Positions 2,130 through 41,563 are shown, counted from the first letter of the stretch. The stretch is DNA of 64,000 nt from Candidatus Yanofskybacteria bacterium RIFCSPLOWO2_01_FULL_39_28 (GCA_001794635.1 MGKE01000014.1:112984-176983); one strand, 5' to 3'. Translations and numbers: made by a program. Notes: generated from the sequence alone by a model not told the origin.

Positions 2130-3458
2130 CTATCGGCTCATTAATGTTGTTACTTTTGCTTCAGCTGATTGAAGCGCGTCTCTAATTTTAAATTTCTTTA
2201 CATTAACATCCTCAATCATATCGGCAAAAATCTGGTCAATAGAATCGTTATCGGCCTGATACCAAGAGCGGGCTGATAAGGCCTGGACGGCAAAAACTCC
2301 TAACATTGGATCATTTCTTTGAAACTCTATCAAATCTCTTCTGGCTGATGGCCGTGAAGTTTTGGTTAAATAGGCCAAGGTCCCATCTTTTGAAGCCATA
2401 TAGCTTAAAAATCTCCAGGCCACACCTTGATTTTTTGATTGAGCTGAAACAGCCACGGCTAGAAAGTTTGCGTAATTCTTAGCATCTATTTCAGAAAATT
2501 GCGGCAAAGGAGCTATGCCAAAATTAAGTCTTTGATACCTCGCGCTAAGAGTTGGTATCTGATGGGAGTAATTAATCATCATTGCCGTATTACCTTCAAC
2601 AAAAGCATCTATTGAATAATGTTGTTCGTCATTCCATGAATAAACTGTTTTGGCCGGATTAGCAAAGTCGGTATAATACTGAAGAGCATTTTCTCCAGTC
2701 CTCTGACCGCTTACGTTCCTAGTAAAAGTTGCGGCAGTGTTGCCAGCATCCGTCATTTGAGTCCCGTTTTGAATCATCAAGGCAGCCAGGATATCGGTTG
2801 AACGATTTATGTTCCTAGCCGTCCCCATAGCTGCTCCTGATTGAGTAATATTACCCCTACCATCAAACTTAGTTAGTAATTCCGCATCTTGATTAAATTC
2901 TTCCCAGTTTTTTGGAGGACGAGTAATACCGGCTGTATTTAGCATGTCTTTATTATAAAAAATTGCCAAAGTATCAACATAAAGAGGCAAAGCATAAATT
3001 TTATTTTCAAAAACAAGATCCTTATAAGCAACGTCTACGAACTGACTCTGAAACTCAACTGGAGTCATGAATTTATAATCCTCTTTGCTTGATATCGTAG
3101 GCATTGGAGCCAATTTATCTCGATGTTTAGCCATCCAAGTGTGATGGATCATGAAAACATCCGGACCCGTCCCAGCGGCAAGAGAGTTAACCAACTCACG
3201 CTCATAGTCCTCAAAGGGAATTTGTTTATAATTAATTCTGACCCCTGGTTCTATTTGTCGGAACCCGTTTATAACATCCACCAAATCCTGCCTAGAGTCA
3301 AAGACGCCCCAAAACTCTAAGGTTGCCTGTTCTTGTTCGCCGCCTATATTACCGACTCTAAACACAATTAAAGCAACCAACGCGATAACAATAATTACCA
3401 CTAGCCCAGTCAGTAGGTAAAAAACCTTATTTGATCCAAATAGTCCAGTTAATGTCAT
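2130..3458 (-). CDS. extracellular solute-binding protein (ABC transporter family-1 type), membrane-anchored
   Basis: 442 aa. N-terminal TM, then LEFWGVFD...GTGPDVFMIHHTWM...YALPLYVDTLAIFYNKDML, typical of sugar-type SBPs. Confidence 0.7.
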   Translation of the reverse strand: MTLTGLFGSNKVFYLLTGLVVIIVIALVALIVFRVGNIGGEQEQATLEFWGVFDSRQDLVDVINGFRQIEPGVRINYKQIPFEDYERELVNSLAAGTGPDVFMIHHTWMAKHRDKLAPMPTISSKEDYKFMTPVEFQSQFVDVAYKDLVFENKIYALPLYVDTLAIFYNKDMLNTAGITRPPKNWEEFNQDAELLTKFDGRGNITQSGAAMGTARNINRSTDILAALMIQNGTQMTDAGNTAATFTRNVSGQRTGENALQYYTDFANPAKTVYSWNDEQHYSIDAFVEGNTAMMINYSHQIPTLSARYQRLNFGIAPLPQFSEIDAKNYANFLAVAVSAQSKNQGVAWRFLSYMASKDGTLAYLTKTSRPSARRDLIEFQRNDPMLGVFAVQALSARSWYQADNDSIDQIFADMIEDVNVKKFKIRDALQSAEAKVTTLMSR

Positions 3459-4039
3459 GATTTGCTGAAAGTTAAGCCAAAATGAAATTGACCAGCATCA
3501 ATTGGATATTCGGAGACAAAACCTTTATTTTTAACTAATTCTTCTATTTCAACAGGGTCTAATCTTTTTTCGTCAGGCGGACCAAACCCACCCGCTCCTT
3601 TTTTCCAGTCTATAAAAATTAATTTGCCCCCGCTTTTCAAAACTCGTTTGGCTTCATCTAAAATATTGTCTCTTTTATTTGACTGAAAAAGTATGTTTAC
3701 CAAAAGAACTATATCTTGAGATTCGCTGGCTAATCCAGAGCTGCCAATCATTTCGAGATTAGCCCTGATGGTTTCTATATTATTTAATCCATTAACCCTG
3801 GCCTTGGCTCTGACACTGTCCAGAGCGCTTTCCACCACATCAAGTCCATAGACTCTCCCTGATGGGCCAGTTCTTTGAGCAATAGAGATAGTGAAGTATC
3901 CTGCCCCACAACCAAAATCAGCTATTTTCATACCTTGAATAATTCCAAAAGTGTCCGCCACTTTGTCAGGATTCATAAAACCGCCAGTCCCAGCAGGTTT
4001 TGCTGGAAAAGTTATCGGCATAGCCATAACATAACTCAC
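3455..4039 (-). CDS. class I SAM-dependent methyltransferase
   Basis: 194 aa. Motif I IADFGCGAGYFT. 4-nt overlap with the downstream gene. Confidence 0.75.
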   Translation of the reverse strand: MSYVMAMPITFPAKPAGTGGFMNPDKVADTFGIIQGMKIADFGCGAGYFTISIAQRTGPSGRVYGLDVVESALDSVRAKARVNGLNNIETIRANLEMIGSSGLASESQDIVLLVNILFQSNKRDNILDEAKRVLKSGGKLIFIDWKKGAGGFGPPDEKRLDPVEIEELVKNKGFVSEYPIDAGQFHFGLTFSKS

Positions 4040-4098
4040 TTTTTAATTCTACCACAAAAGAAAACGGAGTTATCTACAAACAGCCATCAAGTTATAAA

Positions 4099-6540
4099 CT
4101 AGACTACGACGACCAAAGCCAACCCGTCACTGGAGTCAACTCTCATTATTCTGACTCCTTGAGTTGCCCGACCAAGAACAGAAATACTCCCAATATCAGT
4201 CCTGATAACTTGGCCCTTACGGGACACGGCCACAAGTTCTTTGTTTTCTTCGGAAGTAATATGAGCTGAAACGGCTTTGCCTGTTTTTGGAGTAATTTTT
4301 GCAGTCATAATTCCACGACCGCCACGATTCTGAACTTTATAAGCTTTGAGGTCGGTTCGTTTGCCATAACCATTAGCCATCACCACAAGAATATGCAATC
4401 CTTTTTCAATTCCCGAGGGCGCAACATCAGCTCCAATAACTTTTTCATCTTTTTCTATTCTTATTCCTATAACTCCCGAGGCCGCGCGCCCCATTGGCCT
4501 AACATCCTTCTCTTTGAATCTAATAGCATTGCCACCAGAAGTAACAAGAACTATCTGATCATTGCCCGACGTTGTAAATACCCAGCCTAATTCATCATCG
4601 CCTTTTAATTTAATGGCTACCATGCCACTTTTTCTAACCTGCGCAAAAGCATCCATGTCTATTTTTTTAACAACACCCCTAACTGTAATCATAAACAAAT
4701 AGTCGCCCTTGCTGTCTTTTGGAATTGGAACAACGGCAGTAATAATATCTGTCGGAGAAACCTGAAGAAAATTAACAATAGCTTTGCCTTTGGATTGGCG
4801 CGAGGTCTCCGGAACTTCATAACCCTTAGTTTGAAAAACTTTACCTGAATTAGTAAAGAATAGTAGGTTGTCGTGTGTGTTGGCCATGAAAAACTGGGAA
4901 ACCACATCTTCTTCTTTGGTTGCTATACCAACCGAGCCCTTCCCACCTCTTTTTTGGGATCTTATATCTTCCGGTGCCATTCTTTTTATATATCCTCCTC
5001 GGGTGAGCATAAACAAAGAATCTTCTTCTGGAACAAGCTCTTCTTCTCCAATTTCTTTCAAAGCTGACTTAACAACTTTGGTTTTGCGCTCATCTCCGTA
5101 TTTTTCCTTAACTTCTTTTAATTCTTCCTTTATCACGGCCAGAATCTTCTTGGGGCTGGCCAAAAGGTCTTCCAAAAAAGCAATCAGGTCTTTTTTCTCT
5201 TTAAGTTCGTCGTTAATTTTTTTTCTTTCAAGTCCGGCCAAGGCTTGAAGTTTCATTTCCAAAATAGCTGTGGCTTGTTTGTCAGAGAATTTGAATTTTT
5301 TAATTAAATTATTAAAAGCGTCGTCTTTTGAATCAGAGGCTCTGATTATTTTGATAATTTCATCAATATGATCCAAGGCCTTTTTAAGACCTTCAAGAAT
5401 ATGGGCCCGGTCTTTGGCTTTTTGAAGTTCAAACTTTGATCGACGAGTAATTACTTCTTGGCGATGTTCAATGAATTTTTCCAGAAGTTGTTTAAGTCCC
5501 AAAATTTGCGGCTGAATTCCATCCACCAGACCCAACATGTTGAAATGGAAAGATTTCTGAAGTTCAGTATATTTGTAGAGTTGGTTAAGAACTTTGCGAG
5601 GAAAAGCGTCTTGTTTAAGGTCAATGGCAATTCTCAAACCATCCTTGTCTGACTCGTCACGAATGTCTTTAATACCTTCTATTTTTTTATCTTTAACCAA
5701 TTCGGCCATATGGATAATGAGTTCGGCTTTGTTAACTTGATAAGGTATTTCGGTGACAATTATTTGAAACCCCTTCTTTCCTTCTACAATATCGGCTACT
5801 CCCCGCATTATGACCGGACCACGGCCGGTCGCATAAGCATTGAGTATTTCTTTTTCATTATATATTGTCCCGCCAGTAGGAAAATCAGGCCCTTTTATAA
5901 ATTGCATTAATTCATTGACATCTGCGTCTTTGTTTTCAATTAAATACATGGAGGCGTCCAAAACTTCAGTTAGGTTGTGAGGTGGGATATTGGTCGCCAT
6001 ACCAACGGCAATACCCATTGAGCCATTAATAAGCAGGTTGGGTATTTTGGACGGCAAAACCATTGGTTCCTTGGTAGAACCGTCAAAATTTGGAGCAAAA
6101 TTAACTGTATCTTTATCAATATCGGCCAAGAGTGGTTCGGCTATTGGCGCAAGCCGTGCCTCTGTATATCTGTAAGCTGCTGCCGAATCACCATCGATTG
6201 ATCCAAAATTTCCTTGACCATCAACCAAAGGATATCGCAATGAGAAATCTTGAGCCATACGAACCATAGAGTCGTAGGCAGCCGAGTCGCCATGAGGATG
6301 ATACTGACCCAATACATAACCGACGACCTTAGCTGATTTCTGATATTTAGCTCCCGGCCTTAATCCCATTTCGTGCATTGAATAAAGAATCCTCCGATGA
6401 ACCGGTTTTAATCCATCGCGGACATCAGGTAAAGCACGGGCAACAATAACGCTCATAGCGTATTCCAGATAAGACTTGCGCATTTCCTGGGTTATCTCCC
6501 TTTTTTGGATATGATCTTTTTTTGTTTGGTTATCAGTCAT
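4099..6540 (-). CDS. gyrA: DNA gyrase subunit A
   Basis: 813 aa. [20 protein letters not shown], the active-site region [10 protein letters not shown], and C-terminal beta-pinwheel repeats. Confidence 0.97.
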
Positions 6541-6548
6541 AAATAAAA

Positions 6549-6639
6549 TACTACTAATTACAAATCTATCTAATGTACGAATCTACAAATAAGATATTGG
6601 TAGATTAGTATATTCGTAAAAAATTCGTAATTAGTAGTA
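6549..6639. repeat. TACGAAT/TACAAAT hairpin repeat, copy H1
   Basis: tactactaattacaaat...tacgaatctacaaata / tattggtagattagta...attcgtaattagtagta form an imperfect ~40-bp inverted repeat. It lies between ORF 6642-6992 and the gyrA start. Confidence 0.85.
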
Positions 6640-6641
6640 GT

Positions 6642-6992
6642 CTATTTGTCTTCCGAAATCGGCAACTTATAGGCTTTTCCGCTTAAATCACTTTCTATAT
6701 TAATCACCCCTTTGGAACTATAATCATCAATAAAACCAAGGGTGCTATATATTGCCGCTCTCAACTCACCCATTGCTTTTGTCAGGTTGGCATAAATTGG
6801 TGCATTTTTTTCTCTTTCGGCGTAAAACTTAGCCTGAATGTTTTCATCTGTATTCAACATTACGAAAACATTTTCTTCAAAAGATCTAAACCAAATCATA
6901 CCGATAAAAAACACAGTGATAATTACACACAAACCAAACATTATTTCTCTAACGTGACGCGGTTGTTTGCGGATGTCGTTAAGTAAACTCAT
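6642..6992 (-). CDS. hypothetical membrane-anchored protein
   Basis: 116 aa with one N-terminal TM (IMFGLCVIITVFFIGMIWF). Overlaps the upstream gene by 4 nt. Confidence 0.5.
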   Translation of the reverse strand: MSLLNDIRKQPRHVREIMFGLCVIITVFFIGMIWFRSFEENVFVMLNTDENIQAKFYAEREKNAPIYANLTKAMGELRAAIYSTLGFIDDYSSKGVINIESDLSGKAYKLPISEDK

Positions 6993-7621
6993 TGGAACAA
7001 AATTAGTTTAGTTTCCTCTGCTGGTAATGTTTTCTTGTTTATCTTAAGTTTATCAGTTTTTTCAGGGGTTAGTCCAATTTCTTTCAGAAACTTCTCCGGC
7101 CCTTCTAAGTTAATATTGAGATCTTTAATCTTATAGTGCATGGGGATTACGATTTTGGGTTCTATTTGACTGATTACATTGATCGCTTCTTTATAATCAA
7201 TCGTATAAACACCTCCGACTGGAATCATCAAAATGTCTATATCTCCTATATCCTCCAACTGATGCTCTTCAAATTTATCCTGTCCAAAATCACCCAGATG
7301 ACAAACGATCATGTCTTCTACTTTAATTATATAAATTGTGTTAAGGCCCCTTTCTTTTCCACCGGATTTATCGTGAAAAGACTGAATGCCTCTGACTGAT
7401 ATGCCTTGTTTTTCATACTCTCCGGGACCATCAATCAGAAACGCTTCCGGATTTATTTCACCGACATTAGCGTGATCGTAATGATGGTGGCTCACCAAGA
7501 CAAGGTTGTCTTTAATTTTGGGCGGTTTTAAACCTATATCTTTTGAAAACGGATCAATCAAAATACTTCCCTCTTTAGCTTCAATCCTGAAACAGCTTTG
7601 CCCAAACCACGTAATAGTCAT
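6989..7621 (-). CDS. MBL-fold metal-dependent hydrolase (UPF0173-like)
   Basis: 210 aa. LVSHHHYDH metal-binding motif, and ITWFGQSCF at the N-terminus. Confidence 0.8.
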   Translation of the reverse strand: MTITWFGQSCFRIEAKEGSILIDPFSKDIGLKPPKIKDNLVLVSHHHYDHANVGEINPEAFLIDGPGEYEKQGISVRGIQSFHDKSGGKERGLNTIYIIKVEDMIVCHLGDFGQDKFEEHQLEDIGDIDILMIPVGGVYTIDYKEAINVISQIEPKIVIPMHYKIKDLNINLEGPEKFLKEIGLTPEKTDKLKINKKTLPAEETKLILFQ

Positions 7622-7736
7622 GATTAAATAATAACAAAAAAATCTAGTCTAAGCAACAAAAAACAAAAAACTTTACTGCTAATTGTCATCTAGCCAGCAG
7701 GGCAGGTATTTTTCGGACATGTTTTTATAAATTGCT

Positions 7737-7847
7737 ATCGGCAGAGTAAGCATTTTTTCGGGCACGGCGTAAATTCTTGCTAGAATTTCGCCTTTTACTC
7801 AGCTCGTCAGCTTCCGTAAATCCCTTAAAAATACTTACTCTGCCGAT
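7737..7847 (+). repeat. three-way-junction intergenic element, copy A
   Basis: The outer stem atcggcagagtaagcatttttt / aaaaatacttactctgccgat encloses the core ttcgggcac-ggcgtaaattcttgctagaatttcgcc-ttttactc-agctcgtcagct-tccgtaaatccct. Confidence 0.85.
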
Positions 7848-7880
7848 ATATAAGGTAATCCTTTTGTAAAAGTGAGCGAA

Positions 7881-7978
7881 ACCTTGGCCTTATTTGGGGA
7901 TTTGCGCAGGCTGGCTGAGCCGAGCAAAAGACAAAAAGTCAGCAGACTTTTATGGCGTGCCCCAAATAAGGATAAGGT
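7881..7978 (-). repeat. three-way-junction intergenic element, copy B (diverged); a further fragment lies at 7989-8010
   Basis: The outer stem accttggccttatttgggg / ccccaaataaggataaggt encloses gggatttgcgca-ggctggctgagcc-gagcaaaagac-aaaaagtcagcagactttt-atggcgtgcccc. The architecture matches the other copies, but the stem sequences differ. Confidence 0.7.
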
Positions 7979-8069
7979 GAAGCGATATATTTACATCGTG
8001 CCCGAAAAAGATTTGTCTCTGGTTATTTTCTTGCATTTAACTTGGTTATCCAGTATACTTCTAACCACT

Positions 8070-9167
8070 ATGCAAACGATTACTATGGACAATTCACAAA
8101 TAAAGTCAATGAAAGATCTCTTGGCCAAAGAGGATTTTGGTTTGCCAAAAGCTGGCCAACTGCTTCAAGGAGAAATAATCAATATTTCAAAGTCAAATGT
8201 TTTTATTGACCTTGGTCCCATAGGTATCGGCATTGTCTACCCTGGCCAGTTTTATGATAATCCTGACCGAATGAAGGGTCTCAAAAAAGGAGGTCATGTC
8301 TCCGTTATGCTTATTGAACTTGAAAATGATGAGGGTTACCGAGAATTATCTCTAAAAGCCGCTCAACTCACTACTGCTTGGGAAGATATCCGCGAGAAAA
8401 TGGAAAAAGGAGAACTTGTAAATACTACTATTGTAAATATAAACAAGGGTGGATTAATTGTTGAGTTAAGCGGTATTCAGGGTTTTCTTCCATTATCCCA
8501 GCTCTCCGGAGAACATTATCCAAAAGTTGAGGGCGGAGATACAACTAAAATCGTCCAGGCTCTTCAGAAATTCAAAGGTCAGGAGTTTAAGGTCAAGATA
8601 ATTGATTTTAATGAAGCAGAAAACAAACTCATTGTTTCAGAAAGAGCTATTAAGGAAGAGGCGGCCAAAGAAGAATTAGCTAAATTAACCGTCGGCCAAA
8701 TAATTGACGGTGAGATCACCGAAGTTACCGACTTTGGAGCTTTTGTTAGATTAAGCGATACTTTAGATGCTTTAATCCATTCATCCGAAATAGATTGGAA
8801 ATTTGTAGATAACCCGAAAGACATATTAAAAGCCGGCGAAAAAATAAAAGCTAAGATTATAAACTTAGATATGGCTACGGGTCGAGTTTTCCTTTCATTA
8901 AAAGCCCTCAAGGACGACCCTTGGTTAAAAATTGATGACAAATATCAAGCTGGTCAGAAAATAAAAGGCAAGGTTATAAAAATTCGCCAGAATGGAGCAT
9001 TCATTGAATTACCAGGCAACATAATTGGCCTTCTCCCTGCTTCTGAACTCGGTGATAAGTCTCCGGCCGAAATTCTTGAACAAGGCAAAGAGTATGATAT
9101 GGCCATCGTCTCAATAGACGCCAAGGACCACAAACTCTCATTGACTTTGGAAAAAACAACCGAATAA
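8070..9167 (+). CDS. 30S ribosomal protein S1-like protein (four S1 domains)
   Basis: I move the start to ATG 8070 (MQTITMDNSQ) because 7872-8069 of the tracked ORF translates the repeat elements. Four G-x-V/I...GAFV/GLIVEL S1 motifs are present. Confidence 0.8.
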   Translation: MQTITMDNSQIKSMKDLLAKEDFGLPKAGQLLQGEIINISKSNVFIDLGPIGIGIVYPGQFYDNPDRMKGLKKGGHVSVMLIELENDEGYRELSLKAAQLTTAWEDIREKMEKGELVNTTIVNINKGGLIVELSGIQGFLPLSQLSGEHYPKVEGGDTTKIVQALQKFKGQEFKVKIIDFNEAENKLIVSERAIKEEAAKEELAKLTVGQIIDGEITEVTDFGAFVRLSDTLDALIHSSEIDWKFVDNPKDILKAGEKIKAKIINLDMATGRVFLSLKALKDDPWLKIDDKYQAGQKIKGKVIKIRQNGAFIELPGNIIGLLPASELGDKSPAEILEQGKEYDMAIVSIDAKDHKLSLTLEKTTE

Positions 9168-9194: not shown

Positions 9195-10268
9195 TTAGTG
9201 CACCGGCTTATAATCTACCACGCGCTGGTCCTCGGAAAGGTCAAGAAACTCTTCCAACCAGGCAGCGTATTCTCGATCTTCTTGATTTCTCAACTCTTCA
9301 ACACTCGGAATGCCATCAGAGTCTTCAGAGTCTTCAATCTCTTCGGTTACCAGTAAGACTTCTTCCGATTCAACTGTCTCGGGTGTCCCCAACTCCACTT
9401 CTTCTCTCCTTAAAGCGTCATCGAGTTTTCTTCCCAAAAATTTAATCCAAAAATCTCTATCAACATATTCCATTTTTTGCGATACCGAAATATCAAAAAC
9501 ATCATACCATTCCGTAGGAGACGGTCTATATCCTCCGACCGGAAACCTTGGGTCACCGTTGCCAACTGAAAATATGCTCCACCACGAAGAATGAATTTTG
9601 TCGCGAATATCAGGGAGATACGGATCCATGGATCTTAAATGCCTGTAGAGCCTCAGAGTTGAAGCAAGCGTAGATCTGACATGAGACCAATAGGGCCGAT
9701 CGGGGTGAGTAAATCGATTAAAAAACTGCTTCGGCAAGGAAACCGCCAGGTCAAACCAGTCGCTTTTATCAACTTCGTGTTTTTCAATATGAAGATCGGG
9801 ATAAGAGATGAATGAGGTCATCTGTCCCCAGAGTGTTATTTTTCTATGTCCCCCTGGACAAATAATTCCTCTCTTGTTAACACGATCTTTGTATTTGTAA
9901 TCAAACAAAAAAACTCCTGGATAGTTGGTAATTATCTCAATGTCCCGATAACCAGTTTCACAAACAAATTCTCTTATTCCACCGGCAATGATCAACTTTT
10001 GAGTCTCGCTTAGTGAACGATCGGCAAGAATTGGATGATCGGGGCCATAAAGTTCTACTAATCTTTCTCGATCGTCTGCTTCAAGCCCACCGCCACCATT
10101 GCCCCAGCCGGCTTTTTTGGATTCATTATCGTAATACTCAAGATTAGGACTTTCCTGTTCTTCAAGGTTGTGAGCCCACCTAAACATAGTTGGGATATGA
10201 GGATGTCGAGCTAAAACTTGAACGGTTATACCTTTATTGTTGGGATCAACCCAGGATGGCAAGGCCAT
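9195..10268 (-). CDS. island gene 1: hypothetical protein with acidic C-terminal tail
   Basis: 357 aa, no motif I recognise. SD GGAG lies upstream. GC is visibly higher than in the flanks. Confidence 0.6.
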   Translation of the reverse strand: MALPSWVDPNNKGITVQVLARHPHIPTMFRWAHNLEEQESPNLEYYDNESKKAGWGNGGGGLEADDRERLVELYGPDHPILADRSLSETQKLIIAGGIREFVCETGYRDIEIITNYPGVFLFDYKYKDRVNKRGIICPGGHRKITLWGQMTSFISYPDLHIEKHEVDKSDWFDLAVSLPKQFFNRFTHPDRPYWSHVRSTLASTLRLYRHLRSMDPYLPDIRDKIHSSWWSIFSVGNGDPRFPVGGYRPSPTEWYDVFDISVSQKMEYVDRDFWIKFLGRKLDDALRREEVELGTPETVESEEVLLVTEEIEDSEDSDGIPSVEELRNQEDREYAAWLEEFLDLSEDQRVVDYKPVH

Positions 10269-10374: not shown

Positions 10375-11295
10375 CTATCTTAGACTAACAGCTCTTTGAA
10401 TCATCTTCTCCACACTTCGGCGAAGATTATAATCCCGACGGACATGGGCAATTGTCCCATAGGCCGTTCGGAGTTTGCTTGAATAAGCCATCCAGCGACC
10501 ATATCCATTGCTAATCACGTAGCCAGGAACATGACGCTCGTGTGAAAGACGCAAGGTAATAGAAGATGCAATTACTAAATAGCGCCGGAATAATTCAAAC
10601 TCTTTCTCAATAGTCATATCGTTCTGCAACAACTCTTCATCCAATGATTTAGCCAATTCACTTACAACATCAAGAAAACCATACAAGTAAGCCTGGGTGT
10701 TGCCTTGGAAATTTTTCCAAGAGACTACCGCCGGTACCTGGTCAGTTCTTCCAACAATCACTGGCCAAATCTTGCCGAACAAGTTGGCTTCAAACGCTTC
10801 TTGCCAGATCGTCCGGCTGAAACGGTTACCAGTCTCGGCAATTTCACCGTTAACCGAGGCTTCATTGAGACCTAACGAAAGTCGCTCCATGTCATTTTCA
10901 AGAAAAGCCATTTCTTCTTCAGAATTTGCATCGCCCATCTGCGCTTCATTAATATAAGCCTTGCTCAAATCACTCATCAGGTTCTGGGATGAATAACCTA
11001 CTGTGCCATAATTTCTCCGCAGGCGGTCAAGGTGTTCATGCAAACCGTTCATGGCTTCATCCATTTTTTCATACATATGAAAGTCACCAACTGGATCAGG
11101 AATAACAACCCTCGGTTTTTTGATTCTGCGCAGAAATTCGTCAGCTCTTACATCTCTGGTATCTCTCTGTCTTTCTGCTGTTTGTTCTTTCGGGACTGAA
11201 TTAAGTGCCAAGAGATAACCTTCATCAAGTTGCCTTTTTCTGTCTTTGATTTCAGACAAAAAATCACCGGGTGGCACGCTCTGCCTTTCTTCCAT
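10375..11295 (-). CDS. island gene 2: hypothetical protein, possible translin/TRAX-like helical nuclease fold
   Basis: 306 aa. AYLYGFLDVVSELAKSL resembles the translin/TRAX DYLxGxxDxxGELxR helix, and QEAFEAN gives ExxE upstream. This is a recollection-based similarity only. Confidence 0.55.
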   Translation of the reverse strand: MEERQSVPPGDFLSEIKDRKRQLDEGYLLALNSVPKEQTAERQRDTRDVRADEFLRRIKKPRVVIPDPVGDFHMYEKMDEAMNGLHEHLDRLRRNYGTVGYSSQNLMSDLSKAYINEAQMGDANSEEEMAFLENDMERLSLGLNEASVNGEIAETGNRFSRTIWQEAFEANLFGKIWPVIVGRTDQVPAVVSWKNFQGNTQAYLYGFLDVVSELAKSLDEELLQNDMTIEKEFELFRRYLVIASSITLRLSHERHVPGYVISNGYGRWMAYSSKLRTAYGTIAHVRRDYNLRRSVEKMIQRAVSLR

Positions 11296-11452: not shown

Positions 11453-11481
11453 TTGACAAAATCAGTGTTTCTTGCTACAAT
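11453..11481 (+). promoter_or_regulatory. near-consensus sigma70 promoter for island gene 3
   Basis: TTGACA (11453-11458), a 17-nt spacer, then TGcTACAAT (-10 at 11476-11481). The -35 is the right half of the inverted repeat TTGTCAA(11429-11435)-N17-TTGACAA(11453-11459). Confidence 0.6.
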
Positions 11482-11589: not shown

Positions 11590-13509
11590 ATGGAAACGAT
11601 GCAGCATGCTTTCAAAAATGTTGGCACTGGCAGGGGGCAGAGTGCGACCAAACGGGCCGCGAACGAACTCAAGCCAGTCCCCACCCCGGCCCAGTTCAAG
11701 GCCATGGTGGAGTCGCGGCTGGCCAGGTTACGTCAAAGGACGACCCAACAGGCCGATGAGGAGGTGACGGAATACATAGCCGCCCTCAAGGGCCAGGAAG
11801 AGGAAGTTCTCTCTGCTATCGAGCAGGAGAATGAGCTCAAGGAAACGTTCCGTCAGGGCACGGTTGACCGGACGGACGCCGACCGACGGATCGCCGAGTA
11901 CACCGCCCTCAAGAACGAGATACAGGGTCAACTCCGGCAGTACGCCGGAGATCCTGAATACGCTCAGGCCTATCAGGATGCCTCACAGCTGATGAACACG
12001 CGTCGCCAGGCACAGGCCGCAGCCGATCAGATCGCCGAAGATCATCGTCGGGCCTACGAAGGCACCGAGGATCGTCCCCAGCCGTATGGCAAAGGGACGG
12101 CCGATGTCATCAACGCCGATGTGGAATCGGCGGTGGCTTCCAACTTCGTCGTCAAGACGGAGAAGGGAGAAACGGCGACCTTCACCTGGAAGGGCGTCGG
12201 CTACCGCTCGGTTCGGCCCGCCGACTCGATCGTATCCGCCCCAGCTCTGGAACTCGCCAACTTCATCGGCGAGTCCCAGAAGTTCCGCAACGAGCGGAAC
12301 GATGAGGTGGAGAACCGAGTCAGGTGCGACGGCTTCCTGATCTCGTTCAAGAGCGAACCCGATGGAAAGGGTGGCAAGCTCCCCTCGGAACTGGATCTGA
12401 TCCAGGAAGAGGTGGGGGTTTTCGTCAAGACCCTGACCGCGCTTTGTGCCGGCAAGGGCGAGAAGACTCTCGTCCGCCTGCCAGATCGGCAGGGCGAAGT
12501 GCTTCTGGAGCGAGTTGCTCCGGGATCATCGGATGCGTTCCTGACCCGGGCGACAAACGCCAGGGTGGCGGATCAGCTCTTCTACTGGGATGACCGCAAC
12601 AACCCGGGGGCAAGGGCCAAGAGGAAGATGTACGCCATCAACCTCAACGATCTCACTTTTGAGAACGTTCGTCCGGGCTGGTTCGGCGACGCCATGGCGG
12701 AGCAGATCCGCCGGGAAGCGCAGTCCCAGGAAAACTGGAAGAGGGCCGACGGCTTGCGGGATGTCTCGCAGGTTAAGTACCTCATCCCAGCCAACGGGCT
12801 AGCCTACCTTCGGGAAGTCGGCACGTGCGTCGTGGACGCTCGTCCGACTTTGATGATTGGTGGCCGTGAGCATCAGCATGAGCTGACGCTCCACATCATT
12901 GGTCTGGACAACGACGAATTCCAGGTCACGGAGTTTGTTCCGGGGACGGTTGAAAGACTGGACCCGGCGAAGACCTGGCTGGTACCTGCCATTGAAAAGC
13001 CCCAGCCACGCCGGCTCCTCCGCGAGGTAGCCGAGTGGAAGGAAGTCGTCAAAGCCAACTCGTGGTCAGACCGCGATTGGCAGGTCAATCGGGAAGCGGC
13101 ACAGCGCGGAGCTGTCGCCATAACCCGGGAGAACCAGAACGACTTCTGGGGCATCAATGAGGGCGAAGGCAAGGACGGTTTCTACACCGTCCGCGGCAAC
13201 GCCCGAGGACGGTTCCTCGAAAACGATTCGGTCGGTCGGCCGCAGTTTGAGCAACACGCGGCCGGATTCATCGTCCAGCGGACTAGTTCGGAAACGGACC
13301 AGCCGATGTTAGAGATCGTCTGGCACGTGCCCTACGGCAAATCGGCTGAAATCGCCAAGGGTAACCGTGGCAAGCTCCCGCTTGCCAACATCCCGAACCA
13401 AATCCGAGGAGTCCTCGGAAACGTCTACTACTTGGTCAACCGGACCAAGGGTGGACCTCGGGTGGCCACGCCGGCTCACCTCATTCCCGTCAAGCAGGTC
13501 AAGGAGTAA
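11590..13509 (+). CDS. island gene 3: large GC-rich hypothetical protein
   Basis: 639 aa. AGGAG lies 8 nt upstream of the ATG. N-terminal coiled-coil-like region, no motif recognised. One sampled line (12001-12060) is 39/60 G+C, against 25/60 at 8101-8160. Confidence 0.7.
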   Translation: METMQHAFKNVGTGRGQSATKRAANELKPVPTPAQFKAMVESRLARLRQRTTQQADEEVTEYIAALKGQEEEVLSAIEQENELKETFRQGTVDRTDADRRIAEYTALKNEIQGQLRQYAGDPEYAQAYQDASQLMNTRRQAQAAADQIAEDHRRAYEGTEDRPQPYGKGTADVINADVESAVASNFVVKTEKGETATFTWKGVGYRSVRPADSIVSAPALELANFIGESQKFRNERNDEVENRVRCDGFLISFKSEPDGKGGKLPSELDLIQEEVGVFVKTLTALCAGKGEKTLVRLPDRQGEVLLERVAPGSSDAFLTRATNARVADQLFYWDDRNNPGARAKRKMYAINLNDLTFENVRPGWFGDAMAEQIRREAQSQENWKRADGLRDVSQVKYLIPANGLAYLREVGTCVVDARPTLMIGGREHQHELTLHIIGLDNDEFQVTEFVPGTVERLDPAKTWLVPAIEKPQPRRLLREVAEWKEVVKANSWSDRDWQVNREAAQRGAVAITRENQNDFWGINEGEGKDGFYTVRGNARGRFLENDSVGRPQFEQHAAGFIVQRTSSETDQPMLEIVWHVPYGKSAEIAKGNRGKLPLANIPNQIRGVLGNVYYLVNRTKGGPRVATPAHLIPVKQVKE

Positions 13510-13531: not shown

Positions 13532-13576
13532 AACCCCTCATCCAGCACACAGCTGGATGAGGGGTTGTTCTTTTTT
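13532..13576 (+). terminator. strong rho-independent terminator after island gene 3
   Basis: aacccctcatccagc-acaca-gctggatgaggggtt followed by gttctttttt. Confidence 0.85.
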
Positions 13577-13584
13577 ATAAAGTA

Positions 13585-13593
13585 TGGTATAAT
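13585..13593 (+). promoter_or_regulatory. extended -10 promoter element for island gene 4
   Basis: TGgTATAAT, embedded in the palindrome ggtataatacc. Confidence 0.45.
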
Positions 13594-13679
13594 ACCACCA
13601 TCTATGAAAGGATTGTATCTTTAACAAAAAAGGCCTAAACGGCCGGACCAAGTAAAACTTGGCCCAAAGGAGAGACGGG

Positions 13680-14729
13680 TTGGAAACAGCACTGGCAGTT
13701 GAGACTGGGACAAAATTCGGTGGCGTTGTAACGCCCCACAATCCTAGAACTGATGAAATTTCTGCCATTGTTCTTTTGGAACGGCTTTCAGGAAATCCTG
13801 TCACTGAAATCAAGTTGTGGGGACATCCAGAATGTTCCTGGACCAAAATTGATGAATTTGTCGCTTCTGGACTTATGCCGATTGAAATTGGCGACCTTGG
13901 TTACCAATCTGTTAATCTTAGTTCGGCAGCAGAGGCGGTAGTAGCAATGCTGGGTTATGAGAAAGAACAACTAAAACCCAGCGAGGTCAATTTATTAGAC
14001 ATGCTGGCTCGACGCAACCGCGACGGCTACATGAACCAGTTTCATATGAGTCTGCCTCGTATCCTGAAAGATCTTTACGATCTGCCGGAATATGATGAGC
14101 TTGACCTCATCTCAAGGTTCAAAGATGTCGTCCACGCTTTTCTGGAAGATGAGGACCTGGAAGATTCGTACGAACAAGATAAAGCAGGTAGTGAGATTAC
14201 CCAGCTTCAAGATCTGGTTACAGCTACTGTTCGCTGCCAATTTACTCCACTAACTCCTGGCCGCTATCTGCGTGACCTGTGGCGCCGAGGCGAACCGGCC
14301 GACCAAATTCGGGTAAAAGTTGAATTCTGGATCAACGCTTGGAACCGCTGGCAGACAGAGTTCCGAAACGCCCAGCACGAGTGGCCGAGAGTGGATAAAC
14401 TCCGCTTCACCTTCAATGGTTTGGACGGAGCGGCGGCAATACAGACTGCCAACCGATTCTTCCCGAAGGTTTGTTTCGGTAAAGACCAGCCGGGAAAGGT
14501 TGACCTGTTGATCATTCAAGGTCCCAGCGGCCACACAGCTATCATGACCAAGAAAAGGAACGTCTCGGCCTTGTTCCAGGAGTTGAACAATCTAGAACCT
14601 GGACGATGGCATCTCCATCAGTCCGCCGGACAACTCATCAACGGCGGACCAATGTTCCCAGAAATTACACCGACGAGCTTGTCTCTTGCCCAGCTTGCCG
14701 GCTTGGTAGCAAAGTTTACGCCGAGATAG
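13680..14729 (+). CDS. island gene 4: degenerate paralog of the MYG1/DHH-like domain of gene 6
   Basis: I place the start at TTG 13680, 6 nt after AAGGAGA (the track starts at TTG 13659). It aligns by eye with the gene-6 C-terminal region: VVTPHNPRTDEISAIVLL vs IILPTRPQPDTIVAIFIL, LLDMLARRNRDG vs LLEYARRDDFFG, and W..LINGGPMFPEITPT vs W..IQNGGLNPKEINPT. It reads IGDLGYQSVN where gene 6 has DLGGGRFDHH. Confidence 0.6.
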   Translation: METALAVETGTKFGGVVTPHNPRTDEISAIVLLERLSGNPVTEIKLWGHPECSWTKIDEFVASGLMPIEIGDLGYQSVNLSSAAEAVVAMLGYEKEQLKPSEVNLLDMLARRNRDGYMNQFHMSLPRILKDLYDLPEYDELDLISRFKDVVHAFLEDEDLEDSYEQDKAGSEITQLQDLVTATVRCQFTPLTPGRYLRDLWRRGEPADQIRVKVEFWINAWNRWQTEFRNAQHEWPRVDKLRFTFNGLDGAAAIQTANRFFPKVCFGKDQPGKVDLLIIQGPSGHTAIMTKKRNVSALFQELNNLEPGRWHLHQSAGQLINGGPMFPEITPTSLSLAQLAGLVAKFTPR

Positions 14730-14738
14730 AACGACGAA

Positions 14739-14781
14739 GCCCCGACAGGTTTACATGAATCTCATGTAAACCTGTCGGGGC
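14739..14781. terminator. bidirectional hairpin terminator between convergent island genes 4 and 5
   Basis: Perfect 20-bp stem gccccgacaggtttacatga / tcatgtaaacctgtcggggc with a 3-nt loop. Confidence 0.75.
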
Positions 14782-14797
14782 ATTTAAATTGGTTCAA

Positions 14798-15946
14798 TCA
14801 CCAAATCTCCAGAAAATTAAGTGACTGAAGTGATTGGAGGTAGCGAACTTGGCAGTCTTTGCGAACCTGATTCATAACCTCATAAGAAAGATGGCGAATG
14901 AAGTTTAAGAAAAATAACAGCAAATTCTGATCGCTGGTCAAATCGTGTAACAATTTGACGTAATAAGTCTCCTCTTGCGGTGTCAGTTCCTTTCTCATTA
15001 AGGGTTTGTCCAAACAACCCTGGAGAGCTGGCCAAAAGCAGGACTCCATCGTTTTTTCAACCCAACTCATCTCACTCTGACTGCTTGCCAGTTTATCCAC
15101 AGCCAAAAGAAAGAGACTAACTTGACGACAAGGTATCCTGCCTTGAAGTTCTAAAAATATTTCGTTAAGTTTTGGTTTCAGCTTATCAATCAGCTTCAGG
15201 ATTAATAGTTCTAGCTTGGTTAATCGGCCTGGTCCAAACTTGGTTTCCGGCCTAAACTCGGGCCAAATCTGTTTTGCAATGAAAAGCGCCTCTTCGTAGC
15301 TAAACTCCAATTCAACCAGTTTCCATCCTTTAGGGATATCGTTCTTAAACCGAGTCGCTTCTCCAAAAGGAACAACAAGCACTCGCTCAAACTCCTCTGG
15401 AACAACCAGTTTTCTTTTCCTGAAAAAGTCGTGGGTCGCCTTGCCTCCTTCAAGATCCTGAGCAAAGTGACGAAGAGCGATTTCTTGACGCCCCGGCTGC
15501 CAGCGCCTCTCTCGAAAGGCTTCGTATGATGTCTTGACTTCGCCTATACCGCGAACGGTAATTCTTCGGCCGACATAGTCCAGCCAAATAAAGTCACTGT
15601 TGGCCTGACCCCCTTCGTGAAGAACAGAAGTAACCAGTTGGCTAGCTACCTCGCCACGATCAGTGTTGTGGGACAGCTTTGAAGAAAAGTGTGCCAACCC
15701 CTCAACCACAAAACCGAAACCCGAGAAGTCAGGTCTAGTAGGATCACAGCCAGTCGACCCAAACCGACTCTGGAGATAAGGAACCTCCTTCTTCCAGAAC
15801 TCCCTCAAAATATCCCATTTTGTCATAATCGGCGCGCTGTTGAAGCTGTAAGCCGATGATAACAAAAGGTCATTAAAACAAGACAATAAATCAGCTGGCA
15901 GTTGAACAGATACGGATCTAGACGCCACCGACGACTTTTCAGACAT
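14798..15946 (-). CDS. island gene 5: PD-(D/E)XK-type nuclease-like N-terminal domain plus unknown helical C-terminal domain
   Basis: 382 aa. FIWLDYVGRRITVRGIGEVKT gives the D...E-x-K spacing typical of restriction-endonuclease-like folds. GGAGGTG SD lies upstream. Confidence 0.6.
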   Translation of the reverse strand: MSEKSSVASRSVSVQLPADLLSCFNDLLLSSAYSFNSAPIMTKWDILREFWKKEVPYLQSRFGSTGCDPTRPDFSGFGFVVEGLAHFSSKLSHNTDRGEVASQLVTSVLHEGGQANSDFIWLDYVGRRITVRGIGEVKTSYEAFRERRWQPGRQEIALRHFAQDLEGGKATHDFFRKRKLVVPEEFERVLVVPFGEATRFKNDIPKGWKLVELEFSYEEALFIAKQIWPEFRPETKFGPGRLTKLELLILKLIDKLKPKLNEIFLELQGRIPCRQVSLFLLAVDKLASSQSEMSWVEKTMESCFWPALQGCLDKPLMRKELTPQEETYYVKLLHDLTSDQNLLLFFLNFIRHLSYEVMNQVRKDCQVRYLQSLQSLNFLEIW

Positions 15947-15974
15947 CTTTGGCCCACCTCCATGGGCTCTAAAA

Positions 15975-16003
15975 TTGACAAATTGCTTACTTTATAGTAT
16001 ACT
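15975..16003 (+). promoter_or_regulatory. near-consensus promoter for gene 6, in a shared divergent control region with gene 5
   Basis: TTGACA-17 nt-TATACT. The 10-bp palindrome TAGTATACTA (15995-16004) overlaps the -10. A TATAAT on the minus strand (16006-11) faces gene 5. Confidence 0.55.
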
Positions 16004-16052
16004 ACATTATACCCGACAAGGCAATAGTGCTATATTTTATAAGAATAAAGCC

Positions 16053-17564
16053 ATGTTTACTGCAAAACCAATTTTTAATCCAGAAAAAAACACCCTTCTT
16101 TTGGAAATAAAGGGAAATTTACCCGACCTTATTCTGGACGGTGATTTGGCGTTAAAAATTGAGCGCAAAGGATTTGAAAAAAGAAAAGAGCTCCACATAA
16201 CCGTTTTGGGGTTCAAAAGCGGAAAAAGGATTAGAGAGGCTTTGGAAAAAATACCGGACAAAGAAACAATAATTGAAGCACTGATCGGTATGGCCGAAAA
16301 CACCGAATGGACTTTTGACGTTAATCCTGAAAGATTCCATATCTCAAAAAATGAAAGGGAATCAATAATTCAGATGGTAAAACTGGATGGCATTGATAAT
16401 TTTTTTGACAGATTAAACGGATTATTAAACACCGACATAGAAACTCCTCCGCCTCACATAACTTTATATACCAAAGGTGTAGATGAAAGAAGTGGGATGA
16501 GCGGTATCGGCATAAATTCCCAAGAAGAATTTGAAAAACTAAATCCAAGGCCAGTCATTGCTCAAAAACCGGATAAGCCAGCCGGGGCAAAAGTTTATAC
16601 CAAAATCATTCTGCCGACTCGTCCGCAACCGGATACCATTGTTGCTATTTTCATATTGAAAAAATTCGGTGAAGAAATATTCCCCGGTATCAAAACAGCG
16701 TCTGTTGATTTCTGGCAAGTGCCGCCAGAAAAAGAAACGGAAGAATCACTGGACAAAAAGGGTATAATTTTGATTGACCTCGGCGGAGGCAGGTTTGACC
16801 ACCACGCCATAAAACCCCAGACAACCGCTTCTGACTTAATATCTTCTCATTTGGGAGTTGCTGATGATTCCGCCTTAGCTAAACTTTTAGAATACGCCCG
16901 CAGGGATGACTTTTTCGGCAAAGGAACTGTTTCCGAAGATCCGATAGATAGGGCTTTTGGCTTATCTTCAATGATAGCCGTCCTAAACAAAAGTTTGGTT
17001 AAAAATCCGGCCAAAGTTGTTGAACTTATCCTTCCTCTTCTGATTGCCCACTACAATGAAGAGGTGAAAAGAACTAAAGAACTGCCGGAAGAATTTGAAA
17101 AAAAACTTTCAAGTGGAGAAGCTGAAACTTTTCCAGTCAGACAGAGAGATAAAAAATTAAAAGTCGTTATTGTTAATTCAGAAAGCGGCAGTCTGGCCGG
17201 TTACCTGCGTTCCCAAAACGGTGGCCGGTTTGACGTCGTCGCCCAATGGCTGCCTTCCAGCCACGTAAACATTTTAACTCGCCCAACTAAAAGAATTGAC
17301 TTGAGGTCTCTTGCTGCTTTGTTGAGATTAGAGGAAGCCACTGCTTCGGGTCTAGATTTAACTTTGAGTGTCCGAAGTTTAGCCGGTTACGGAAGAATAA
17401 AAGAAATCCCTGAATGGTATTATGATCCAGCCACCAACTCTATTCAAAACGGCGGACTAAACCCAAAGGAAATAAACCCGACCAAAATACCCAGAGATAA
17501 ATTTAAAAAAATAATAGAACTTGGGCTTTCCGAACAGCTTTGGAGCCCAAGAGAACAATATTGA
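16053..17564 (+). CDS. gene 6: 2H phosphoesterase (LigT-like) domain fused to a MYG1/UPF0160 (DHH-type)-like domain
   Basis: Start moved to ATG 16053 (MFTAKPIF). It has two H-x-T motifs, LHITVLG and PHITLYT, about 85 aa apart. The later ILIDLGGGRFDHHA and TASDLISSHLG resemble MYG1 DVGGxYDxxxxRYDHHQ...SSAGLIY. Confidence 0.65.
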   Translation: MFTAKPIFNPEKNTLLLEIKGNLPDLILDGDLALKIERKGFEKRKELHITVLGFKSGKRIREALEKIPDKETIIEALIGMAENTEWTFDVNPERFHISKNERESIIQMVKLDGIDNFFDRLNGLLNTDIETPPPHITLYTKGVDERSGMSGIGINSQEEFEKLNPRPVIAQKPDKPAGAKVYTKIILPTRPQPDTIVAIFILKKFGEEIFPGIKTASVDFWQVPPEKETEESLDKKGIILIDLGGGRFDHHAIKPQTTASDLISSHLGVADDSALAKLLEYARRDDFFGKGTVSEDPIDRAFGLSSMIAVLNKSLVKNPAKVVELILPLLIAHYNEEVKRTKELPEEFEKKLSSGEAETFPVRQRDKKLKVVIVNSESGSLAGYLRSQNGGRFDVVAQWLPSSHVNILTRPTKRIDLRSLAALLRLEEATASGLDLTLSVRSLAGYGRIKEIPEWYYDPATNSIQNGGLNPKEINPTKIPRDKFKKIIELGLSEQLWSPREQY

Positions 17565-19582: not shown

Positions 19583-19656
19583 GGGTGTGTAGCTCAGCTG
19601 GTTAGAGCATTTCACTTATAATGAAAAGGTCCCTGGTTCAAATCCAGGCACACCCA
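19583..19656 (+). tRNA. tRNA-Ile(UAU)
   Basis: Hand-folded cloverleaf with acceptor gggtgtg/cacaccc, anticodon stem tttca/tgaaa and loop cuUAUaa. No encoded CCA. Confidence 0.85.
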
Positions 19657-19660
19657 CATT

Positions 19661-22104: not shown

Positions 22105-22402
22105 TGGTGCCGCGGGAGGGAGTTGAACCCCCGACGCCAGCCTCTTCCAAAGCTGAATTGGACTATATCATCACCCCCTTAGAATTTATATAAAGAGGGG
22201 CTGGGCGCTTATATAGGATTATCGTTGGGACTCACCTATTAGTCTCTACACCTGCCGGAAAATCAAAGCCCCTTCCGGATCGGCTCGGGATTGTTTCTGT
22301 TAAAGAAGTTTCCCCCGAATTCACCCAGTTTTTCTCAGAACTCATTACTAAGTTCGGCCCCAAAGAATTTAGGGCTGCGCTCTACCGCTGAGCTACCGCG
22401 GC
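22105..22402 (-). tRNA. tRNA-Phe(GAA) interrupted by a group I intron
   Basis: 5' exon gccgcggtagctcagcggtagagcgcagccct (22402-22371). 3' exon gaagaggctggcgtcgggggttcaactccctcccgcggcacca (22147-22105). Joined, they give the anticodon loop cuGAAga with A73. Confidence 0.8.
22148..22370 (-). ncRNA. group I intron (IC3-like, tRNA-type), ~223 nt, no internal ORF
   Basis: P1 pairs gcccu with ggggc, with the U.G pair at the 5' splice site. ucuuu next to the guide pairs with the 3' exon gaaga (P10). The terminal residue is G. ggtgaattcgggggaaac and aggtgtagagacta match my memory of the Azoarcus tRNA-Ile intron core (GGUGUAGAGACUA). Confidence 0.75.
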
Positions 22403-38186: not shown

Positions 38187-38462
38187 TATCTTGTTCAGTT
38201 TAATCTTGTTTTCTTTAAAAAACGAGTTGATACTTAATAGCTGAAGGGTTAGCTCGTTGGCTATAACTTTATTGTCTGTGTTTATTGTTAAGCTGTTCTC
38301 TTTGGCGTCATAGTTTAAAACAAAAGAAAAACCCATAATATCGTCTCCGAATTTGTTTTTTAAAAAAGAATAGAAGCTGGTTTTTATAATAGCTAATTTA
38401 TCTTGTGATTTGCTGAGATAATTTTTTCTTTTTTCAAAAAGATTATTAATACTTTTCAGCAT
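38175..38462 (-). CDS. DUF721/DciA-like small protein
   Basis: 95 aa immediately downstream of dnaN. SLTINTDNKVIANELTLQ resembles the DUF721 'GTLTV...AWAQEL' segment. Confidence 0.5.
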   Translation of the reverse strand: MLKSINNLFEKRKNYLSKSQDKLAIIKTSFYSFLKNKFGDDIMGFSFVLNYDAKENSLTINTDNKVIANELTLQLLSINSFFKENKIKLNKILIR

Positions 38463-38466
38463 GTTT

Positions 38467-41561: not shown

Positions 41562-41563
41562 AT

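Follow-up and report, generated by a model that had tools for sequence, protein, structure and literature searches.

A DHH/DHHA1-like paralog pair in Parcubacteria, one member of which lacks the DHH triad

The 64,000-nucleotide stretch of Candidatus Yanofskybacteria bacterium RIFCSPLOWO2_01_FULL_39_28 analysed here in its entirety (GCA_001794635.1 MGKE01000014.1:112984-176983; hereafter the window) originates from a member of the Parcubacteria, within the candidate phyla radiation, and has a background G+C content (GC) of approximately 0.39. It raises the question of whether two of its genes, numbered 4 and 6, are diverged copies of one another and, if so, what has become of the copy that appears to have lost its metal-binding motif. 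Gene 4 (13680-14729, + strand, TTG start) encodes a stand-alone protein of 349 amino acids, whilst gene 6 (16053-17564, + strand) encodes a protein of 503 amino acids made up of an N-terminal domain (16053-16571) and a C-terminal domain (16572-17564); gene 5 lies between them on the opposite strand. A sequence-only reading of this region had described gene 6 as an intact-looking fusion of a 2H domain with a MYG1/DHH-like domain, and gene 4 as a paralog without the DHH motif. The analyses reported below indicate that genes 4 and 6 are most likely an ancient paralog pair, representing an unclassified DHH/DHHA1 branch in Parcubacteria.

A direct BLASTP comparison of the two proteins was not significant, with a best E-value of 0.15 (the segment containing the NGG motif) and an E-value of 34 for a 174-residue N-terminal piece, hence family alignments were built. 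When the alignment of gene 4 and 27 relatives (A1) was compared using hhalign with that of the gene 6 C-terminal domain and 35 stand-alone relatives (A2), a probability of 95.5% and an E-value of 1.4e-8 were obtained over 273 collinear columns, which take in nearly the full length of each protein. The four segment pairs quoted in the sequence-only reading were all paired in this alignment, including DLGGGRFDHH of gene 6 opposite IEIGDLGYQSV of gene 4. A hidden Markov model (HMM) of 94 diverse gene-4-like proteins, none of them gene-6-like (A4), gave gene 6 a score of 85 bits (E = 1.6e-25) and placed gene-6-like proteins from elsewhere at 82-104 bits; reciprocal matches were present but weaker. 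A search of 1.84 billion representative sequences with the A1 profile retrieved 215 clusters at E <= 1e-3, and gene-6-like proteins were recovered in the whole-library search with E-values of 5.6e-9 to 6.2e-8. For the gene 6 C-terminal domain, the first search alone yielded >400 relatives, either stand-alone forms of approximately 325 amino acids or fusions to an N-terminal 2H domain. Since the profile-profile, HMM and structural evidence (see below) agree, the homology is regarded as real: judged from their family profiles, gene 4 and the last 330 residues of gene 6 are true, distant homologs. The lengthwise correspondence of gene 4 with the C-terminal two-thirds of gene 6, as claimed in the sequence-only reading, was thus borne out by profile alignment, though not by pairwise comparison.

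Existing family models did not account for either protein. No Pfam family matched gene 4 or gene 6 at E <= 1, PF01368 (DHH) and PF02272 (DHHA1) included, nor did any NCBIfam model, and no Pfam match was found in the 94 gene 4 relatives. Across genes 4, 5 and 6 and the genes around them, Pfam, NCBIfam, PADLOC and PHROGs gave no informative match, the PDB returned nothing when searched by sequence or by profile, whether with a single sequence or with the family alignments A1-A5, and tblastn searches of phage records with gene 4 and the gene 6 C-terminal domain were without a match. Longer members of the gene-4 family carried no informative fused domain, with the exception of one weak cold-shock-domain match.

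AlphaFold models generated from the family alignments had a predicted local distance difference test score of 90.0 and a predicted template modelling score of 0.80 for the gene 6 C-terminal domain, and 87.5 and 0.83, respectively, for gene 4. The order of elements was identical in both, with a beta-alpha-beta N-domain joined through a long linker helix to a C-domain rich in beta structure, and an extra helical insert was present in the gene 4 model only. Foldseek searches of the PDB with the gene 4 model retrieved the pAp phosphatase 8a8k, RecJ (5f54, 2zxo and 1ir6), archaeal RecJ-Cdc45 (7bhi) and GdpP (5xt3), with probabilities of 0.6-1.0 and template modelling (TM) scores of 0.31-0.45, in addition to a weak match to Cdc45 and a match over 166 columns to the DHHA1-like C-domain of alanyl-tRNA synthetase (AlaRS; 3wqy, probability 0.89). 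Matches of the gene 6 C-terminal domain model were weaker than those of gene 4, and included 6mtz, an uncharacterised protein of H. pylori (E = 3.9e-4, probability 0.94), and RecJ-Cdc45 7bih (E = 0.017, probability 0.57); literature searches on 6MTZ retrieved nothing relevant. TM-scores were modest across the Foldseek matches (0.2-0.45), in line with a flexible hinge between the two lobes of such proteins. Both proteins are thus predicted from their models to have the two-domain DHH + DHHA1 fold, a placement that for gene 6 also follows from its HMM homology to gene 4, and the possibility that the two have unrelated folds was excluded.

The likeness to MYG1 proposed in the sequence-only reading proved to be local. 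PF03690 (MYG1/UPF0160) matched neither gene 4 nor gene 6. As a control, a human MYG1 sequence was used and validated, matching PF03690 at 1e-137 and being near identical to PDB chains named 'MYG1 exonuclease'. When this sequence was compared with the gene 6 family using hhalign, only the DxGG...DHH segment was aligned (46 columns, 38% probability), and neither gene 4 nor the wider gene-4 family gave a significant alignment (probability below 1%). The term 'MYG1-like' is hence apt for the DxGG...DHH motif of gene 6, but membership of the MYG1 family was ruled out by the absent PF03690 match and the short hhalign alignment. Instead, the placement of genes 4 and 6 in a distinct branch of the DHH/DHHA1 superfamily is supported.

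Within this branch, the two proteins differ at the residues expected to bind metal. Amongst 36 sequences of the gene 6 C-terminal domain, the invariant residues comprised D21 (in LPTRPQPDT), D69 (in IDLGGG), D76-H77-H78, D112-D113, H231, W282 and N293-G294-G295; gene 6 accordingly possesses the DHH triad (motif III) along with the acidic motifs I and II by which membership of the superfamily was assessed. The DLGGGRFDHH segment is encoded at 16776-16805, and the triad itself at 16797-16805. Gene 4 has D32, E76, G78 and Y82, after which Q-S-V takes the place of the D-H-H of gene 6; the gene 4 segment IEIGDLGYQSVN (13881-13916, + strand) is, by translation and the hhalign register, the counterpart of DLGGGRFDHHA, with the motif-II acidic residue being Glu. 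The triad was absent from 28 of 28 close and 94 of 94 wider gene 4 relatives. Position 83, which follows Y82, was K, Q, R or S throughout the close clade (28/28) and His in 43 of the 94 members of the wider family, whilst the motif-I Asp and motif-II Glu/Asp were retained across the family. D32, E76, S89, E92, N120 and H292 were invariant in the close clade. The column facing D113 of gene 6 was Asn in 91 of 94 gene-4 family members, a replacement that is rated only probable because the hhalign and hmmalign registers differ there.

The C-terminal motifs, by comparison, were common to both families (G-H, E...W and N-G). W317 of gene 4 was invariant in all 94 gene-4-like proteins, and W317, N328-G329, E313 and G291 correspond to W282, N293-G294, E255 and G230 of gene 6. 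As judged from these residues, gene 4 keeps the signatures of the substrate-binding domain without the canonical metal site, and we infer that it has lost catalysis. The hhalign register and the column counts both support the earlier statement that gene 6 keeps the DHH motif and gene 4 does not.

The N-terminal domain of gene 6, of approximately 175 residues, contains two H-x-T motifs, ELHITV (16188-16205) and PPPHITL (16446-16466), within which H48-I-T50 is encoded at 16194-16202 and H135-I-T137 at 16455-16463. All four His and Thr residues were invariant in 19 homologs, in keeping with the 2H domain that had been read from the sequence. PF22547 (2H-SAK) gave a weak match (E = 0.017) in two of the 19 N-domain relatives, whilst hhalign against an unvalidated E. 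coli ThpR sequence was not significant, and a PDB profile search with this domain gave no match. Amongst the top 120 gene 6 relatives, N-domains of three kinds were found joined to the same end of this C-terminal domain (55-76% identical): 17 relatives carried PF02834, most of them with PF13563 (LigT-type); a small group carried domains of the form DHLTIHF...HPHITLS, one member of which (P0102) scored against PF08302 (the cyclic phosphodiesterase domain, CPD, of tRNA ligase); and the remaining fusions had the gene 6-type N-domain. In a further locus (L013; related loci are referred to by such numbers), a stand-alone LigT gene was located divergently beside a stand-alone gene-6-like gene. The N-terminal domain of gene 6 is thus a putative 2H phosphoesterase, and the three independent fusions and the one adjacency argue for the functional coupling of a 2H cyclic phosphodiesterase to the DHH-like domain.

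The genomic contexts of the two families were also compared. A search for related loci with A1 gave 2 genome loci and 6 metagenome loci. A gene-4-like gene adjoined a gene-6-like gene in nine distinct loci (the window, L001, L014, L024, L008, L022, L023, L025 and L026). Five of these were direct same-strand tandems with the gene-4-like gene upstream and without gene 5 (L008, L022, L023, L025 and L026). In the L008 tandem, 75 bp separate the two genes and the neighbours are housekeeping genes other than ftsH and unrelated to it, whilst the tandems of L025 and L026, the latter with a 4-bp overlap, are each followed by ftsH. Given that there are nine adjacent loci as against others with one gene only, pairing is frequent and occurs in independent contexts, but is not obligatory; the pairing of enzyme and paralog envisaged in the sequence-only reading therefore holds as a recurrent adjacency and not as a rule. 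The ~270-amino acid genes upstream of the gene-6-like genes in L009 and L011 were considered as further candidates and found to be unrelated to gene 4 and to each other, and a 356-amino acid gene next to the beta-CASP gene in L013 was likewise not gene-4-like.

In the clade of the window, the gene order is S1, a 357-amino acid protein (-), a metallo-beta-lactamase beta-CASP protein (+), a ~630-amino acid protein (+), gene 4 (+), gene 5 (-), gene 6 where present, ftsH, rluA and rplS. At this position, gene 6 is carried by the window, L001/2, L014/15 (where it has no 2H domain) and L024; L016 and L021 are uninformative on gene 6, as both contigs stop at gene 5. The ~630-amino acid gene was directly upstream of gene 4 in every window-clade locus reaching that far. 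Both it and gene 5 are additions specific to some lineages.

The two families evolve at unequal rates. Across the nine loci with both, mean pairwise identity was 35% for the gene-4-like proteins and 61% for the gene-6-like domains, with gene-4-like identity being the lower in 36 of 36 locus pairs. They also differ in composition, as the sequence-only reading had noticed. Gene 4 has a GC of 0.495 and a GC at third codon positions (GC3) of 0.50, with z = +3.9 relative to 44 other open reading frames (ORFs) of the window, whereas the full gene 6 (from 16053) has a GC of 0.406, a GC3 of 0.36 and z = +0.6 (GC3 0.37 for the C-terminal domain alone). GC1, GC2 and the share of Gly, Ala, Arg and Pro were also raised in gene 4. 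The same contrast in GC3 was evident elsewhere, where the gene-6-like value is that of a stand-alone C-domain homolog and not, as in the window (0.50 vs 0.36), of a full gene 6: gene-4-like versus gene-6-like values were 0.78 vs 0.53 in L008, 0.79 vs 0.38 in L022, 0.77 vs 0.47 in L023, 0.85 vs 0.53 in L025 and 0.65 vs 0.45 in L026. The contrast is not a sign of recent import, since it is present in every lineage examined even though gene-4 proteins are only 26-42% identical between lineages (the window's closest relative excepted); the suggestion that one copy may have been imported recently is hence very improbable, and the GC contrast is a conserved property of the gene family. In L022, composition alternates gene by gene, with the flanking genes at 3313-4371 and 209-628 having GC3 values of 0.84 and 0.66 and the gene-6-like gene between them 0.38.

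The explanation that we favour, to which we give an even chance, is that gene 6 is an active RNA or nucleotide phosphoesterase and gene 4 its non-catalytic paralogous partner, with the substrates, the inactivity and the partnership all being inferred. Gene 6, having kept the acidic residues and the DHH triad, would be the conserved and presumably active member. Its 2H domain would act on RNA fragments or nucleotides by opening their 2',3'-cyclic phosphate ends, following which the DHH/DHHA1 domain, by analogy with NrnA, would strip the resulting phosphate or degrade the short oligonucleotide, giving gene 6 a role in RNA turnover and nucleotide salvage. Gene 4 would share its ancestor with gene 6 and would probably be the product of a tandem duplication, given that a gene-4-like gene usually lies directly upstream of a gene-6-like gene; it would then have lost the DHH triad whilst keeping the C-terminal DHHA1-type motifs (GH, EPxxW and NGG). 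Its product is most likely non-hydrolytic, and may serve gene 6 as a regulator or as a partner that binds nucleotides or RNA, possibly in a heterodimer. In the lineage of the window, the locus has been expanded by the gene with the PD-(D/E)XK motif and the GC-rich ~630-amino acid gene.

Several observations weigh against this explanation. Gene 4 keeps the motif-I Asp and the motif-II Glu, and 46% of its wider family retain one His at the DHH position, on account of which gene 4 may have residual or altered catalysis. The N-terminal domain of gene 6 was recognised neither by Pfam nor by hhalign against LigT-type domains (E = 0.051, not significant). Genes 4 and 6 in the window have separate promoter-like and terminator-like signals and an opposite-strand gene in between. 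Gene 6 is absent from the locus in L003-L007 and L017-L020, where ftsH directly follows gene 5, and a gene-6-like gene is without a gene 4 neighbour in three loci (L009/10, L011/12 and L013). Lastly, the higher GC of gene 4 is unexplained by a simple in-place duplication.

These points bear on the alternatives to differing extents. The main one, which we think unlikely though a serious contender, is that gene 4 works with the ~630-amino acid, PD-(D/E)XK-motif, beta-CASP and 357-amino acid proteins as a separate nucleic-acid-processing or conflict module, the proximity of gene 6 being incidental in that both are located upstream of ftsH. The block of 357-amino acid (-), beta-CASP (+), ~630-amino acid (+), gene 4 (+) and gene 5 (-) genes is whole without gene 6 in L003-L007 and L017-L020, and whole too in L021, the contig of which stops at gene 5; its members evolve fast (29-52% identity vs 81-88% for gene 6 and S1) and are compositional outliers, and one of its slots has been swapped in the window, where a 306-amino acid gene replaces that of beta-CASP. 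Such a module is, however, at odds with the five direct tandems, which have neither gene 5 nor beta-CASP, with the lack of PADLOC and phage matches, and with L008, in which a probable relative of the ~630-amino acid gene is kept together with both paralogs. It is also rather unlikely, in our estimation, that gene 4 is still an enzyme, with a remodelled site (D32, E76, E92 and H292) of other metal geometry or substrate, such that the pair would consist of two enzymes. The residues invariant in its close clade, the acidic residues kept family-wide at motifs I and II, and the His following Y82 in 43 of 94 relatives would all fit an enzyme; the replacement of all three DHH residues throughout the close clade, the Asn that 91 of 94 relatives have at the D113-aligned position (of ambiguous register), and the much faster evolution of gene 4, which fits relaxed catalytic constraint, speak against one.

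That gene 4 is a recent horizontal import, or xenolog, would explain its GC3 and its position in a GC-elevated block, but we consider this very improbable: the same GC excess and synteny occur in every related lineage, the low identity of gene-4 proteins between lineages speaks against a single recent import, and no closer gene 4 relatives were found outside this context. The prospect that the similarity is due to chance, or that the folds are unrelated, is negligible, for although the pairwise BLASTP E-value alone would allow it, the profile-profile, HMM and structural evidence concur in refuting it.

A further proposal, which we rate as doubtful, concerns the composition of the locus: gene-4-like and ~630-amino acid genes may be held at a GC3 of 0.5-0.85, in Parcubacteria genomes that range from AT-rich to mid-GC, by a gene-specific process, either a recombination hot spot with GC-biased conversion or continual replacement from a GC-rich pool, and would form a hypervariable pseudoenzyme cassette at a possible arms-race interface. 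Were this so, a cassette attached to a conserved RNA-end phosphoesterase could supply a decoy, a guard or a specificity subunit to an enzyme that comes under attack from phages or from the episymbiont's host. The ~630-amino acid gene (11590-13509, + strand), with a GC of 0.61, has a GC3 of 0.74 (z = +9.6 relative to the 44 other ORFs) in a genome of 0.39 GC. Its orthologs (L001:7987-9858, L003:7941-9854, L015:1568-3454 and L024:1419-3245) have GC3 values of 0.59-0.81 and occupy the same syntenic slot, with proteins only ~29% identical. The probable short relative that accompanies both paralogs is encoded at L008:35-1213, and in L007 the gene is split into ORFs at 6235-7296 and 7447-8133, which a frameshift, a pseudogene or an assembly error could explain.

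Gene 5 (14798-15946, - strand) encodes a protein of 382 amino acids that had no Pfam, NCBIfam, PADLOC, PHROGs or PDB profile match. Amongst nine homologs, E82, D118, E136-V-K138 and Q150 were invariant (D118 to K138 are encoded at 15533-15595), and the pattern E...D...ExK...Q, being typical of PD-(D/E)XK nucleases, suggests a putative assignment to that class. The protein is only 36.5% identical to its L001 ortholog, and is thus fast-evolving. The putative PD-(D/E)XK gene that the sequence-only reading had placed between the paralogs has an invariant motif set, but it lies outside the core pair and is absent from the five direct tandems; it is a lineage-specific insert between the paralogs.

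With respect to local signals, the start of gene 4 was placed at TTG 13680, which is preceded by a Shine-Dalgarno sequence, AAAGGAG, at 13666-13672 and at which homologs begin with ME; TTG 13659, as chosen by the ORF caller, was disfavoured by the position of the Shine-Dalgarno sequence and by the homolog starts. A putative extended -10-like element, TGGTATAAT (13585-13593, + strand), was read directly from the sequence upstream of gene 4 and downstream of the preceding terminator-like hairpin, and was not picked up by the two-hexamer promoter scan. The terminator scan located a 20-bp perfect hairpin with 11 G-C pairs at 14739-14781, between the convergent genes 4 and 5, which is terminator-like and possibly bidirectional. 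Upstream of gene 6, the promoter scan gave a promoter-like TTGACA-17-TATACT at 15975-16003 (+ strand, 11/12 matches), and a weaker promoter-like site is situated upstream of the gene 5 start at 16024-15996 (- strand). The ORF caller had started gene 6 at TTG 15975; this TTG belongs to the -35 hexamer of the promoter-like site, and the ATG at 16053 was taken in its place. The ~630-amino acid gene has a promoter-like site upstream (11453-11481) and a terminator-like hairpin after it (13532-13566).

The gene for the 357-amino acid protein (9195-10268, - strand) opens the conserved block bounded by rpsA (S1) and ftsH, and has orthologs in the same position in L001, L003, L007 and L018-L021; a Nudix-like reading of this protein was dropped, as the spacing was unfit for a Nudix box. 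The 306-amino acid gene (10375-11295, - strand), which was present in the window only amongst the loci compared, fills the slot of the beta-CASP gene found in all related loci, to which it is unrelated and opposite in strand. It had no relatives in any locus compared, and the only match was a weak one to NCBIfam NF011157 (E = 0.006).

An RNA theme recurs in these neighbourhoods, with S1, beta-CASP and cold-shock-domain genes all being represented. A cold-shock-domain gene is located directly upstream of the gene-6-like gene, on the same strand, in L011/12 (L011:5038-5871) and L013 (4560-5312), whilst in L009/10 (L009:3966-4847) it is two genes upstream on the opposite strand. In the 660-amino acid gene-4-like protein P0260, a weak cold-shock-domain match (E = 0.0036) follows the DHH-fold region. 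These cold-shock-domain observations point to RNA.

Elsewhere around the locus, ftsH is directly followed by a tRNA-Ile with anticodon UAU (19583-19657, + strand). The position upstream of ftsH, which tilS and hpt occupy in many bacteria, is held in the window by the gene 4/gene 6 locus. Inteins were observed in housekeeping genes of homologous loci, namely gyrA in L004 (1-1033) and ftsH in L025 (4468-10209), the latter exceeding 1,900 residues with several intein-splicing matches and a LAGLIDADG match. An apparently non-coding stretch contains a group I intron at 22138-22380 (- strand), which scored 65 bits against Rfam RF00028 and so exceeded the gathering score. Directly downstream, 22116-22133 (- strand) gave a short match (E = 0.006) to the tmRNA model at its tRNA-like 3' end, and the two together suggest an intron-interrupted tRNA-like gene. 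The region 38000-42000 of the window has a low GC of 0.29-0.34, compared with ~0.39 for the background.

Parcubacteria, the genomes of which are tiny, rely on nucleotide salvage as far as is known. The present analysis defines two unannotated families, one with >400 relatives from the first search and the other with at least 215 clusters, and no paper covering either family or the 2H-DHH fusion was found in literature searches. Three independent fusions tie the gene 6 family to 2H cyclic phosphodiesterases and so lead to a directly testable enzyme hypothesis, and with gene 4 the locus offers a clean case, found in nature, of an enzyme gene paired with a degenerate paralog. The raised GC and rapid divergence of gene 4, beside a slow neighbour of genome-typical composition, could in addition report on recombination or conflict.

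Amongst known systems, nanoRNase and pAp-phosphatase activities have been reported for NrnA. The present proteins resemble NrnA, pAp phosphatase and GdpP in their predicted two-domain DHH + DHHA1 architecture, in the Foldseek matches of gene 4 to 8a8k and 5xt3, and in the acidic motifs, DHH triad and second-domain GH motif of gene 6. They depart from those proteins in having no Pfam DHH or DHHA1 match at E <= 1, in the motif I of gene 6, which is a single Asp in LPTRPQPDT instead of DXD, in the missing DHH triad of gene 4, and in a family-specific C-terminal signature, EPxxW...NGG...PT. Eukaryotic Cdc45 is a DHH-fold protein known as a non-catalytic helicase subunit; it and RecJ-Cdc45, to which the models match (7bhi and 7bih), provide a precedent for a DHH-fold non-catalytic partner, although here there is no replisome context and the partner is a paralogous enzyme gene as opposed to a helicase. 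The C-terminal DHHA1-like domain of AlaRS binds tRNA and belongs to a protein that is not a hydrolase, as is proposed for gene 4, the model of which matches 3wqy; the likeness is confined to the second domain, and gene 4 has no synthetase context.

MYG1/UPF0160 (PF03690) is a 3'-5' RNA exonuclease (PMC6582341) that shares the local DxGG...(F/Y)DHH arrangement and a similar size of ~330 amino acids, but its N-terminal THxGxFHxDE motif is absent here. LigT/ThpR and Trl1-CPD are 2H cyclic phosphodiesterases (PMC4201822, PMC7145591), to which gene 6 is likened by the two HxT motifs ~87 residues apart in a ~175-amino acid domain and by relatives that carry PF02834/PF13563 or PF08302 in the same place, even though its own N-terminal domain is undetected by their models. 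Set against these systems, the gene-4-type and gene-6-type proteins are sizeable new branches of a known superfamily, lying outside the existing family models.

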